Assembly (NCBI GenBank): GCA_964106645.2
Contig: OZ067038.1
Strand: one strand, 5' to 3'
From: Podarcis pityusensis
Lineage: Eukaryota
DNA: 64,000 bases
Below the pieces are notes generated by a model, which did no database searches, was not told the DNA's origin, and saw only the letters and a list, made by a program, of their open reading frames with translations. Below are positions 202 to 49,300 of this stretch, one piece after another. Positions within the stretch are counted from its first letter, which is position 1; each line of letters starts with the position of its first letter. The position numbers and the translations under genes were made by a program.

Positions 202-28235
<28,034 letters not shown>

Positions 28236-43339: not shown

Positions 43340-46300
43340 GTAATTATATTAGATTATTCTCTTTCTCCTGTGCTTGTGTAGTGGAAAGCAGACCTCACAT
43401 TAAAGAAAGCTATTTAGGATGCACAAAGCCCTATCATAGTAAATGAGATTTGCTGTCCAAAATGGTTTCTGTACCACTGAAGAAAAAACCTCTCTCAATA
43501 CGTCAAGCTTTTAATTTAGAAAACAAAAATACTCTTTTCAGAATATTGCTATTTGAAATGAACAATATAACCTAGTAGGATCTATTTAGATTCAGGAATA
43601 TAACATCATGCTCAGTTACATGAAACTCTGTATATAGTGTGATTACTAAATGTCTTTATAAGTCCATATGGCTGAAGATAAATCTCTTTTTTGTTTTAGT
43701 CTTTGGAAAGCACAAGGAGAATTCTTGGCCTGGCCATTGAGGTAAGGAAAAGCTTTTGCGGGAGTGAGGGATGAGGAAGAACAAATCAAATTGTTTGAGA
43801 GCAGTTCATTCCTGCAGTTCTGTTCCCAGCTGTTGCTATTTTTAAAGCATGTGGGTGCCATTATGAGGCATGTGTAGATGATGACTATGGGTGGAACAGC
43901 TTTGAACTTTAAATATTTGCATTGCTGCTGTATTTAGGGTTCAAATTCAAATAAATTAGCTGTCAGGTACTTGCAACTGAATTGCTCATCTTCTGCAAGA
44001 TTCTGAACATACTTTTACAAAAAATGGACTTCCTTGAGGTTTACATGGTACTAATGCAAATAGTGTACTCTTCACTAGAAACTCTGTAGAATGGCCTGTT
44101 GTAGTACAAACATGTGTCCAATTCTAGCATTAGATTTTGCTGGTTTTGTATCTCCTATCATTTTTTTTCTTCCTTACAGTCCCAAGATACAGGAATCAAA
44201 ACCCTCACCATGCTAGATGAACAAGGGGGTGAGTTGTGCATGTGTAATAATAGATAGATAGATAGATAGATAGAGCGAGTGATGGCTCTTACATTGACTT
44301 GCTCAATACGATCTTTGTTGGTTTCAGCCTGGAATACAAAACATAGCGTAAGACTGCTACTAAACTAGAAAGATGGAAAAAAGCTGTTTATATCATGTTG
44401 TGAATCAACCATTTCTTCAAGAGCTGGATTAGAATAAGTTTGTTTGGTAGTATTATGGCTCGGGTTATCTAAAATATATTGCGTGCAGCATGCAGTATTT
44501 TTTTACTTCAGTTTTGAGACCTGAGGCACATGAATATTGTTTGTTTGTTTGTTTGTTTACCCGCCCTTCAACTTAAGATCCCGGGATGAGTTGCAACCTT
44601 AAAACACAACATTAAAAACAGTTTAAAACAAATTACAATAATAAAAAATAAGGTGCGTTCTAAAACTATGCACCTCAAGTGTCAAAAGCCAGGGTAAACA
44701 GGTGTGTCTTCAGCATCCTCCGGAAGCTGTATAATGAAGGTGCCAGATGCACCTCTGGGGAGGAAGTTCCACAGCTTAGGGGCCTCCACAGAGAATGCCC
44801 TCTCTTGCTCCCCCACCCCAAACCTCTGAGGGTGAAGGAACTACCGAGAGGGCCCCCTCTGCTGAACCCAGGATCCGAGAGTGTCTGTAGGGAAGAAGGC
44901 GGTCTTTCAGATATTTGGGGCCTGAGTCCACCCAGGTGTGGATACTAGTGTGATTCACTTGCATATTATTGGTATTCAAAAAAGTTTCTCTTGCAACTCC
45001 AAAATTACTTTTTAATGCATTTCCTCGGGTTTTTTCTTTTTTTTTTAAAGAAGCATTTTGAACACAAACCATTAAAGTTCTCATCTGAAGATCAAGCATC
45101 TTGTAGCATTTAAGTTCTCTAAAATTCCTTTTTCTTTATACTTTTCTTAGAACAGTTAACCCGTATAGAAGAAGGAATGGACCAGATAAACAAAGACATG
45201 AGAGAAGCTGAGAAGAACTTGACAGAGCTCAACAAGTGTTGTGGTCTCTGTGTCTGTCCTTGCAATAGGTCAGTTAAAGGCAGGTTGATGAATTCCAAAA
45301 TTCAAGGGGAAAAATTGAGGCCATTGAGAAATGCTCAGAATATCAAGATTGGGAGTTTTTTTTAACTGGTGTGCTTTAGACTATTTTCCCAAGTTTAAGT
45401 GGAAGTTCTAAATTTTTAAGTAGTACAAATTCCTTGAACCTGATTATGTGTAAGGGCAAAAGAAAAGGTAACAATAAACGCTTGGATGACCTTAGTTACC
45501 ACTATTGAATGTTTTGCGTATATATTGCTCAGTGCCAGTATTGTTTGTTACTGTTAAAATAATACCTGGTTGGTATGGTTAAGGTACAGATTTCACACAA
45601 ACACAGAGTAGGTTGACTAGAAGCAAGGAATATTTGGAAATGCTTTGAGAGCTTGGCAGGCAGGCGTATGATATACATTCTAAATACCTGTTTTCTTCTT
45701 CCTTTTGCTATCACATTCTAACTCCTTTTTCCTGGAGAGTGCTTAGCTTGTTTGAGGGCTTTTGTGATAGTTCTAAATATTCTTATTTTGATGTATGTAT
45801 ATTTGAGAGATCTTTATGGAATCTATTTCAGTTTGCTTAAGTAGAGGAAGAGGGACAATATAACCTTCTTCTAGTAATTTTGGGATGGTCTGGCCTTAAC
45901 ACAAGTAGTGAATACAGCACTCACAGAATTAAGTTTCAGTACTAACCCCACTTACATGGAAGTGACCCCCATTGAATTTAGTAGGATCTTCTTCTGAGTA
46001 GACGAGGGTTGCAGTCTTAATCGTTTTTTCCTTTTCCCTGTGTTAGGGTTAAGCTGCTTCCCCCCCTAAACACAAACGTAATCTCAGCTGTACTTTTGAA
46101 ATAGTTTGTTTGCTAACAACTATTTATCTGTTTGCTGGTCTTACTGCTCACTCTTTTCTCATTCTCTCTCCTAACCACCCACTTTTCCTTGCTTAATAAA
46201 ATGAAGATTTAGCAGCAGAGGTTGGATTCGCTTAACTGGTCAAAGTGGACTTTAGAAAAAGGTCAATCTTATGAAGCAGCCTGTACTGTTAACCAGCTGC

Positions 46301-49300
46301 CTGAAGGTGATGTTCTAACTGGGTGCATATATGCATGTGCATGCTGTCTTAACACGCAAGCTATTTTGTGATGGTCCGTAGTTGTGTTTGTATCTGTGCT
46401 ATGTTGCTTATAGATTGTGTTTAAACTATTTGGTCTGGCCTCATAAACCTGAAATAGTCTTCTAGGATGATACTGTTGGATTTTGGATTTTGTTTTGGGG
46501 AAAATGGAGGATTGTATACAGTGGGGAAAATGTTGGAGGAATATTGTGAAATGACACTAAAAGCTAACAGTGGGGGTTTTCTAGTCACCGTTAGCTCACT
46601 GCATTTGTTTTTAGAAATTATTTCCCATATATCTATACCAGGGACGGGGAACCTATAGCTCTCCAGATATTGTTGGACTCCAGTTCCTATCATGCTTGAG
46701 TGCTGACTGAGACTCATGGGAGTTGGGAGTCCAAGAACATCTGGAGGACCACAGGTTCCCAATCCCTCATGTAGTCTATTCCGTGAATCATGATCTTACA
46801 TACAACTTGTTAAAAACTCTAGTGATGATTTGAATTTGGTCATACAATATTAGAATTCTGAACTACTGATACTCTATTCATCTGTTCCAAAAATATAATG
46901 CTGGGAGATTGTACATTATTTCTTCTTAAACACGCATTGTAGTCCTATATCTTAGACTGTAATTTGGTTGATTTTCTTTAACATAGCAGCCATTAGTAGC
47001 AACAAGGAGGCTGAGGAGTAAGAAAACAGTTCGGATACCAAAGCAGTTCAAGATTTAAATATAACATACAAACTTTAGAAAAATAAAATGGTTGTGTTTA
47101 TTTTTGTATAAGGTTGCTTCCAGTGTGAAGTTATATGTCTTAAATTCACTTGCTATATGACATTTTTGGTGCACACACAAAGCTCAGTGCAAATGTAAAG
47201 AATGTGTATTTGAAAACATGAACACACATCAGGAAGTCAGGATTGGTTGGGTCTCGCTATGGCATTTTCTGTGGCAAACCTGGGGCTATTACTCTGTCAT
47301 GTATGAAACCGTCCTTTCTATTACTAGTTATATTGCACATTAGGTTTGTTAAAACTTTGTATCTTTGATCTAATAATGTGCGTTCTGACTTTTCTTGTAG
47401 AACAAAGAATTTTGAGACTAGCAGAGCTTACAAGACAACATGGGGTGATGGTATAGAGAATGATCGTGTAGTGTCTAAACAACCAGGGCGTGTTGCAAAC
47501 AATCTGCAACAAAATTCGGGAGGAACAGGATCTGGAGGCTACATAAAACGGTAAGATACTTCCCCTGCCCACTCCTGAATATTTATAGGACTAAATGCTT
47601 TTCTCTGCAATAGTAGTGACTGCATTTTGTAAGCTTAAGGACAAACCTTTTGGCCTGGTCCACACAATCAAATTTTTGCTTCATTAGCCAGGATATACAT
47701 AAGCTCCATGCAGTTGCACACAGCTGCCGTGCTCCCGATTCACTTTTCCCTTTGTGTGAGTGGGGGAAACAAGCCAAGAAGCCATAGTTAACCACAGCAT
47801 CTCATTACTTTTGAAGCAGGAACCAAGGTTAATGAATTCCAAACAATTCAGAATATGAAGTCATGTTTTAAAGCTGACTTGTGAATCCTGGCTTGACTGG
47901 AAGCCATTAATCACCCAATTTATAACTAGAAGCTGTGGTTAACTACCATTTCTGGAATCTTTTCTACTTTGCACCAAGGGGCTTTCCACAGGTTTACAGA
48001 GCTTCTGATTTGATCATTCAAACATGGCTATTCTGTGTAATTCATGAGATCATTCTCAGACACTTCTAGTAGATCTATAGTGTCTCTAGGTGATTATATC
48101 ACTTTCTGATTCAATTTTTCAAACAAACTTGCGTAGAAACCTCCATGGCAGAAAATACTTCTGAAAACTTGGGATGCGATAACATTCGGGAGACAGGAAC
48201 TTGGGATTTCTCAATGTTGGTTTCCCTTGATACTTTCAACAGGATAACAAATGATGACAGAGAAGATGAAATGGAAGAAAACCTAACTCAAGTTGGAAAC
48301 ATATTGGGGAACCTGAAAAATATGGCCGTGGAGATGGGCAACACAATTGATACACAAAACCAGCAGATAGATCAGATAAACATTAAGGTAAGAAACAAAG
48401 AATTCAACTATTGATGTCTTAATGTTGGTAAATCTAGTGTCCAGGTGGACAAGTTAATAAGTCTTCAAGGCCACAGTGCTAAGCTGTAGCCAGATACACT
48501 GTGTACTTTTGTTATATTTGTTGTTGTTTTAGTTTTCTACACACCACTTAAATATATTTTTATATATTGTGATAGAGAAGTGGTCTAAACAAAAACACAT
48601 TCCAATTTAGCAACAGGCTATAGCCATTTAGCATGCATGAGTTAATATCCTTGTACCCAGATGATGGGTCCTGCAGCTAGATAGGATTAAACCTGATCTC
48701 ATGGCAAACTCTCCTGGTTGTGGTCCTTACATATAGAAACAGTGATTATCTCAGAATTCTTGTCCCACTGTTCTGGATTCTTTTGTAGCACTCGGTGTAG
48801 AAAATTATGATAAACATTATATTGATAGGCTGAGATATAATATTCCACATGCCTTAGATTTTTAATCCCAATGTTAAGCAGCAACAAAAATAAGACAACT
48901 GAAAGCAAGGTACATTTTCGAGAAATCATGGAAAGGAACCTCTGTTCAACTCTGTGCTTGAATTGTTTTGGTTTGTTTTTTTACCAGTTTTTACATTAAT
49001 GAGAGATAAATGCACAAATCAGAGCTACCATAGTTATTTAGGAACATGATATAAGACCTGGAAAACCTTGATACAGATCTCCTGAGTTATGAATACAATT
49101 AAGTGACTGTGGTTTACACAAAAGAATACAGCACTATTTCCCTGCCTTGGCTTCTCCCATGCTCCCAGTAATAGGGGTGTGAGAATACTGGCCTACTTTA
49201 CTTAGCTGAAGATTGCTCTTTGTTATATATGTGTGCTACATATTTCCTAATAATTTGATTATATCACAATTACTGCCACTAAACAGTTAACTGAATAGGA

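Follow-up and report, generated by a model that had tools for sequence, protein, structure and literature searches.

A conserved QKI/RBFOX splicing block and a candidate poison exon in the SNAP23 gene of a lacertid lizard

Introduction

The mouse Snap23 gene contains a 33-nucleotide (nt) microexon used in striated muscle, which encodes the peptide FSVGDCFFETR and whose donor is GC (Gentile et al. 2025, PMC12064062). In the available parts of that study, both QKI motifs and both RBFOX2 motifs lie downstream of the microexon, no QKI or RBFOX2 motif lies upstream, and these motifs were shown to act on it. Here we analyze an intron of SNAP23 in a lacertid lizard, contained in a window of 64,000 nt of Podarcis pityusensis DNA (contig OZ067038.1 of assembly GCA_964106645.2), and in particular the block 46100-46350, for which the original prediction proposed a lizard orthologue of the muscle microexon, one nt short of the mammalian length. 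Our analysis centers on a different element of this block, a candidate poison exon that starts at the same acceptor.

Other mouse data bear on the same gene. The available passages of PMC12528612 describe an "alternative downstream exon" of Snap23 that brings a premature stop and is non-coding in NCBI, and Table S10 of that paper gives, with junction counts, a 93-nt exon between the 118-nt and 156-nt exons (mm39 chr2:120421302-120421395). According to the portions of PMC11406248 at hand, knockdown of Qk in NSC-34 cells lowers three transcripts other than Qk itself; Snap23 is one of them, and another, Daam2, is lowered through a cryptic nonsense-mediated decay (NMD) exon. Literature searches, with subscription journals mostly outside their coverage, returned no report on reptile SNAP23 splicing or on a Snap23 poison exon regulated by QKI and RBFOX.

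Results

The host gene is SNAP23, exon 47401-47550 of the window being 98% identical to a Podarcis record, and the intron that separates this exon from the cysteine-cluster exon 45151-45268 measures 2132 nt. The motif positions in the original prediction are exact: CTAAC at 46113, 46171 and 46315, AAG/ATTT...ACTG/GTCAAA at 46207-46238 (32 nt), and TGCATG at 46332 and 46338. When chance levels for intron motifs were set by 3000 dinucleotide shuffles of the intron, the tandem TGCATGTGCATG, present once, was recovered in 0/3000 shuffles, and CTAAC was observed six times as against 1.96 expected (p=0.014). YGCY occurs seven times within 46100-46350, compared with 2.4 per equal length (251 nt) elsewhere.

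Four published mouse oligonucleotides, namely the QKI#1, QKI#2 and RBFOX2 #1+2 morpholinos and a donor primer, all from the accessible part of PMC12064062, were aligned singly to the lizard intron. The QKI#2 morpholino aligned at 46198-46216 (p=0.010) and the RBFOX2 #1+2 morpholino at 46332-46349 (p=0.024); neither the QKI#1 morpholino nor the donor primer matched the intron significantly (p=0.34 and 0.70, respectively). The two matches taken jointly, in this order and within 300 nt, were equalled by 0/1500 shuffles and by 0/59 other real tiles of the window. AAAATGAAGAT is common to the lizard block and mouse, which share an exact 12-mer and an exact 11-mer in the block, and GATGTT at the lizard donor stands 23 nt before the RBFOX pair versus 22 nt in mouse, the mouse offset being read by eye from the primer table. 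Read in the same way, this table has a branch-like CTTAAT and a pyrimidine tract preceding the QKI#2 core. As judged from these alignments, the block 46100-46350 is the counterpart of the intron segment that follows the mouse muscle microexon.

It is about an even proposition that the block holds a rarely used poison exon, running from 46207 to 46306 or ending at 46261, which would probably be shared with mouse. Under simple consensus scoring, 46207-46306 has the anatomy of such an exon, with a branch point, a pyrimidine tract, an AG and a consensus-like donor. The lizard branch-like sites read CCTAAC and GCTAAC, the ACTAAC form belonging to mouse. Branch point-AG arrangements number four in the 2132-nt intron, two of them at the real acceptor and the others at 46046 and 46206, and 3 of the 139 intron GTs reach 7/9 consensus matches, two being 46261 and 46306. 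The tandem TGCATG starts 25 nt after the donor 46306/07; when exon-like pairs on both window strands were considered, with criteria chosen post hoc, a TGCATG no more than 100 nt after the donor was found for 2/30, both starting at 46207.

A premature stop located more than 50-55 nt before a later junction is the usual criterion for NMD (the 50-nt rule). The TAG at 46253 sits 156 nt (55-nt exon) or 201 nt (100-nt exon) before the junction that follows exon 47401-47550, that is, beyond this distance, and with an exon of either length it would leave a 104-residue product without the second SNARE helix. The original prediction had also seen in inclusion a possible off-switch for the gene; because any exon that starts at 46207 and has a reasonable donor would carry a premature stop, such a switch remains plausible.

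The sequences compared with the window are a DNA contig (X1) that covers 45100-46685 and possibly comes from the source sample, and four contig sets guessed to be RNA (X15, X17, X19 and X20), of which X15 carries another species label and X19 has no coverage of the block. X1 and X15 agree with the window at the acceptor, the stop, the donors 46261 and 46306 and the RBFOX pair. A further donor, at 46244, was discarded, its T being altered in X15 and X17.

The 32 nt at 46207-46238 are very probably not the microexon orthologue. Since the QKI#2 match spans 46198-46216, the proposed exon would start inside an element of the mouse downstream intron, and the mouse oligonucleotide covers the proposed acceptor together with the first 10 exon bases, which leaves both the orthology with the 33-nt microexon and the claim of a missing nt unsupported. 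The candidate does lie between the cysteine-cluster exon and the next exon; it does not stand upstream of both QKI and both RBFOX motifs, and its donor is GT instead of a weak GC. This donor (CTG/GTCAAA at 46238) scores 5/9, with 50 of the 139 intron GTs as good and 19 better, the acceptor before 46207 has 9/17 pyrimidines (63/128 intron AGs are equal or better), and 71 pseudo-exons of 15-60 nt in the intron match the candidate on both splice sides, so that the 32-nt exon itself is not beyond chance. Better donors follow downstream, at 46261 and 46306.

The length of 32 nt is not an assembly slip, because X1 is gap-free and X15 is identical there. An indel had been raised as a possibility; X1 shows four substitutions over 45100-46685, all outside the block, and no gap, and X15 agrees with the window over 46207-46238, all 13 substitutions and 23 gap letters of its contig having been placed. 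The exon thus measures 32 nt in the window, X1 and X15, not 33 nt in frame, and from 46207 there is no stop-free in-frame option with a GT or GC donor within 75 nt. The supposition of a splicing cassette shared across amniotes holds in part: the QKI/RBFOX/MBNL block has a recognizable lizard counterpart, but 46207-46238 is not its microexon. Overall, the original prediction was mostly wrong, in that it found a real splicing block conserved between lizard and mouse and named the wrong exon in it.

Given that the mouse QKI motifs lie downstream of the microexon and that the QKI#2 match falls here, the slot of the microexon is expected upstream of approximately 46110. The AG at 46046 is preceded by the most pyrimidine-rich tract of the intron (15/17; 1/128 AGs is this good), at a branch point-AG distance of 26 nt; no use of this acceptor was seen in the RNA of the raw-read runs or contig sets. 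The slot 46047-46104 is without a stable donor, and the donors tested there give stops. Stop-free in-frame options from the AGs in 46040-46230 amount to six, none from 46207 or 46213 and none with a top intron donor. Two candidates in the slot were rejected: a microexon remnant at 46081-46104, whose profile score is the highest of the zone at 46081 yet is equalled by 593/735 zones, and a 31-nt exon 46047-46077, whose GT at 46078 is lost in X20 and which has a 7-nt insertion in X15. A hairpin at 46039-46074 has its stem over the AG at 46045-46 and YGCY in its loop (z=-2.1 when folded in a 56-nt frame picked by eye); it is absent from the 101-nt fold, and the other folds are unremarkable. An intact version of the coding 33-nt microexon is absent from this lizard, where the slot is not an in-frame exon, so that either mammals gained the microexon upstream or reptiles lost it.

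In a survey of SNAP23 proteins, which left out marsupial, monotreme, crocodilian, amphibian and fish records, an 11-residue insert at this junction was present in 37 of the first 186 proteins, 36 of these from placental mammals. No insert was found in the 36 squamate records that span the junction (of 37 in all, one ending at the junction) or in the 19 turtle records, and the conservation of the block is therefore not explained by an annotated coding exon. Among the 76 bird records, counted from the members listed with 15 per large bird cluster, 46 have no insert, 17 have one extra residue, two lack four residues, nine are partial models without the upstream exon and two, from swans, have nine extra residues. 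The swan insert (P0193 and P0205, isoform X1) was considered as an avian microexon, with p=0.012 for one peptide and 0.49 for the other against the mammalian inserts, and was set aside, as a similar peptide results from bird models that extend into the end of the intron; the lizard intron end reads SDFSC. It has no match anywhere in the lizard intron and most likely reflects an upstream acceptor of the next exon.

Three raw-read runs (X22, X23 and X24), with another species label and unrecorded tissue, were sampled to 6-12% each, and their splice junctions were listed from three reads up. In these runs, 64 lizard reads (23, 21 and 18+2) join 45268 to 47401, and all listed RNA junctions skip the whole intron; the same skip joint is present in X15 and X20. 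No joint to 46207 or to 46238, the junctions implied by the original prediction, is listed in any RNA run.

The mouse data allow a comparison with the 93-nt exon. From the primer lengths, the AG of the mouse QKI#2 region lies at most 122 nt from the matching donor, or approximately 91 nt if the lizard spacing is assumed. We infer that the mouse 93-nt non-coding exon and the lizard exon are the same exon. Coordinates of the mouse microexon were not found in the available supplements of PMC6197527, PMC11406248, PMC5577920 and PMC7532667, and the available passages of PMC13676984, PMC12721327, PMC10033318 and PMC7532667 hold nothing further on the mouse exon question.

Table 1 Features of the SNAP23 locus, in window coordinates
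Feature	Position	Strand	Details
SNAP23 constitutive exon, cysteine cluster	45151..45268	+	118 nt, as long as the mouse exon in the rMATS row; RNA depth
Second intronic acceptor: branch-like CTTAAT, long pyrimidine tract, AG	46016..46046	+	Where the mammalian microexon slot is predicted
Predicted mammalian microexon slot	46047..46104	+	No exon that is both intact and in frame; likeness of 46081-46104 to the mouse exon visible only by eye
Likely mouse QKI#1 counterpart, GCTAAC for ACTAAC	46106..46118	+	By eye against published probe/primer tables; missed by the morpholino alignment
Branch point CCTAAC, pyrimidine tract and AAAATGAAG acceptor; counterpart of mouse QKI#2 region, core AATAA here	46170..46206	+	Oligonucleotide alignment, primer table
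32-nt exon of the original prediction, 5' part of proposed poison exon	46207..46238	+	Own donor weak
Proposed poison cassette exon	46207..46306	+	Inferred, not observed spliced; 100 nt; alternative end 46261 = 55 nt
In-frame TAG stop in proposed exon	46253..46255	+	After 104 residues
Donor AAG/GTGATG	46304..46312	+	7/9 consensus matches, equal to four real donors of the gene
Tandem RBFOX motif TGCATGTGCATG	46332..46343	+	Identical to mouse RBFOX2 #1+#2
SNAP23 constitutive downstream exon	47401..47550	+	150 nt; skip joint in RNA

Several other features of the locus were recorded. A very high-copy palindromic repeat occupies 46600-46770 of the intron, with a contig depth above 10,000 in X1 and an opposite-strand joint in X20; it resembles a small non-autonomous DNA transposon. 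The segment 45940-46023 is a lower-copy repeat with raised depth in X1, X17 and X20, and contains the sole ACTAAC of the intron. In X15, the 5' part of the intron is a single contig, 45239-46467, with a depth of 33 and ending at 46467, and 46658-47427 has a depth of 12; contigs of X17 and X20 run past 46467. The linker residue encoded at 47528-47529 is G in the window versus T in three Podarcis records, and reads of other runs differ at both bases. A run of 200 N bases is found at 6839-7038 of the window. Searches of the own genome with 46020-46110 and 46075-46400, of a type that skips common words, matched each query only to itself, and a metagenome scan for vertebrate copies gave three matches, none of which aligned to the SNAP23 locus.

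Discussion

The proposed exon would work as follows. The cassette 46207-46306 would be skipped by default, RBFOX bound to the tandem UGCAUG 25 nt past the donor would promote its inclusion, and QKI on the CUAAC branch-like sites would repress it by competing with SF1. Inclusion would take place when RBFOX activity outweighs the repression at the branch sites, presumably in some tissue or state, and the in-frame stop of the included exon would then lead to NMD and to less SNAP23, the net effect being control of the amount of this protein.

A number of points weigh against a poison exon in this position. No joint into the block 46100-46350 is listed in the three raw-read runs, at the threshold of at least three reads, with tissue unrecorded and no block of NMD; X22 and X23 have zero depth on the block, the depth of X24 fits one unspliced fragment of approximately 122 nt that runs past 46306, and the block is spanned without a break by contigs of X15, X17 and X20. 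The block contains no strict QKI core ACTAAY (the intron has one, at 45941), which makes the QKI step the weakest one in the lizard. Only 2 of the 16 differences between X15 and the window fall in the block, a lower divergence that is not significant (p=0.17), and the scores of the splice sites are simple counts of consensus matches, with no trained model. On the mouse side, the 93-nt exon may sit elsewhere in the 8.5-kb intron than in the segment past the microexon, its relative position in the intron is 0.53 versus 0.44 for the lizard exon, and its stop may stem from the skipping of exon 5 with which it was called (PMC12528612, passages available). Moreover, the results section of PMC11406248 does not assign the drop of Snap23 on Qk knockdown to any exon. 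The RNA sampled here could fail to show an NMD target if it came from the wrong tissue, although nothing in it indicates use of the exon.

Other explanations account for parts of these observations. The block might be purely intronic, an inherited RBFOX/QKI enhancer of a decayed amniote microexon (with 46047-46104 as its remnant) from which nothing is spliced, a reading we regard as somewhat unlikely. It fits the lack of inclusion in the three raw-read runs and the three contig sets that cover the block, as well as the action of these motifs on the microexon in mouse (PMC12064062, available parts), and a strong acceptor does persist at 46046, in the predicted slot, where 46081 gives the top profile match of the zone. 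Yet the match of the remnant is not significant (593/735 zones), no reptile record examined has the coding insert, and, considering how far amniotes have diverged, the exact 12-mer and 11-mer in common with mouse would be hard to keep without present or recent selection; the exon-like anatomy of 46207-46306 would also be left unexplained. Less probable still is a regulated unproductive exon from 46047, which would end at 46103, 46261 or 46306, or would be a last exon using the AATAAA at 46195, with a stop after 107 residues. Such an exon, all tested forms of which contain stops, is supported by the best pyrimidine tract of the intron, a branch point at 26 nt and a position like that of the mammalian microexon, and the sole substitution listed for the tract (46034 T>C in X20) leaves a pyrimidine; against it, the depth over 46024-46191 is zero in X22-X24, the donors nearby are either weak or, as at 46078 (G>A in X20), polymorphic, and conservation of the acceptor is a presumption, no mouse oligonucleotide covering it. 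The AATAAA at 46195-46200 stands in place of the mouse QKI#2 core and might supply such a last exon with an intronic poly(A) signal; RNA ending at this site was absent from the runs and contig sets examined.

It is very improbable that 46207-46238 represents an orthologue of the 33-nt muscle microexon that lacks one base. The original prediction was right that the mouse peptide starts with FS and ends with TR, and within the intron nothing resembles the mammalian inserts more closely than the peptide of 46207-46238, which ranks 1/131 among AG starts (22/33 best-case identities) and 1/2103 among positions, with a single-site p=0.017 for its likeness to FS[DV]xxCF[YF]E[TI]R; a real branch point-AG precedes it as well. 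The best-in-intron values, however, are p=0.12-0.15 and 0.89, the donor is weak, no junction reads were found, and the mouse sequence that matches its acceptor and first bases is downstream intron. By the mouse oligonucleotide alignment, this model appears largely refuted.

A broader reading of the poison exon is possible, and we put it forward tentatively, as having somewhat less than an even chance. The QKI/RBFOX block of SNAP23 would be a poison-exon switch as old as amniotes that sets the SNAP23 dose; mammals would later have gained a coding microexon approximately 130 nt upstream that re-uses the same sites, so that QKI promotes the microexon and silences the poison exon, and the lizard would keep the older, non-coding state. 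If so, what was published as a "microexon enhancer" would overlie another exon that is hidden, and the morpholino and deletion targets QKI#2 and RBFOX2 #1+2 (PMC12064062, available parts) would fall on the acceptor and just past the donor of an exon that triggers NMD. This might bear on the mismatch between QKI motif deletion and morpholino results in the accessible text of the same study and on the lower Snap23 mRNA level under Qk knockdown described in portions of PMC11406248, and the locus would be a case of a tissue-specific coding microexon that arose beside an older element of unproductive splicing. If the reading is false, the block remains a splicing element conserved between lizard and mouse without its coding exon, which is of modest interest.

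Compared with the mouse microexon block, as represented in the available parts of PMC12064062, the lizard block lies in the same intron of the same gene and has the QKI#2 region followed by the tandem RBFOX2 motif in the same order, along with many YGCY motifs; it differs in being without an in-frame 33-nt exon, a GC donor and strict QKI cores. The mouse 93-nt exon (PMC12528612) likewise is in the same intron, has a premature stop and is close in length to the 100 nt in lizard and the estimated 91 nt; it was seen in hair cells and was called mutually exclusive with exon 5, and the available passages link it neither to QKI/RBFOX sites nor to reptiles. Like QKI-repressed exons with ACUAA branch sites, such as RAI14 exon 11 (PMC13004596, in part), the lizard has CUAAC branch-like sites upstream of a silent acceptor, but these read CCTAAC and GCTAAC instead of ACTAAC, the ACUAA(C) branch site being found in mouse and not in lizard, and repression of the lizard exon is a proposal. 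In the case of the cryptic NMD exon of Daam2, the parallel is that Snap23 mRNA also falls on Qk knockdown (PMC11406248, portions at hand). Finally, with the conserved cryptic poison exons of PMC11632617, the main text of which, as far as available, makes no mention of SNAP23, the lizard locus shares an unannotated, stop-bearing, exon-like element that is located in a conserved intronic block and is poorly seen in ordinary RNA-seq, whereas the Snap23 block, unlike these exons, also enhances a neighboring coding microexon in mammals.

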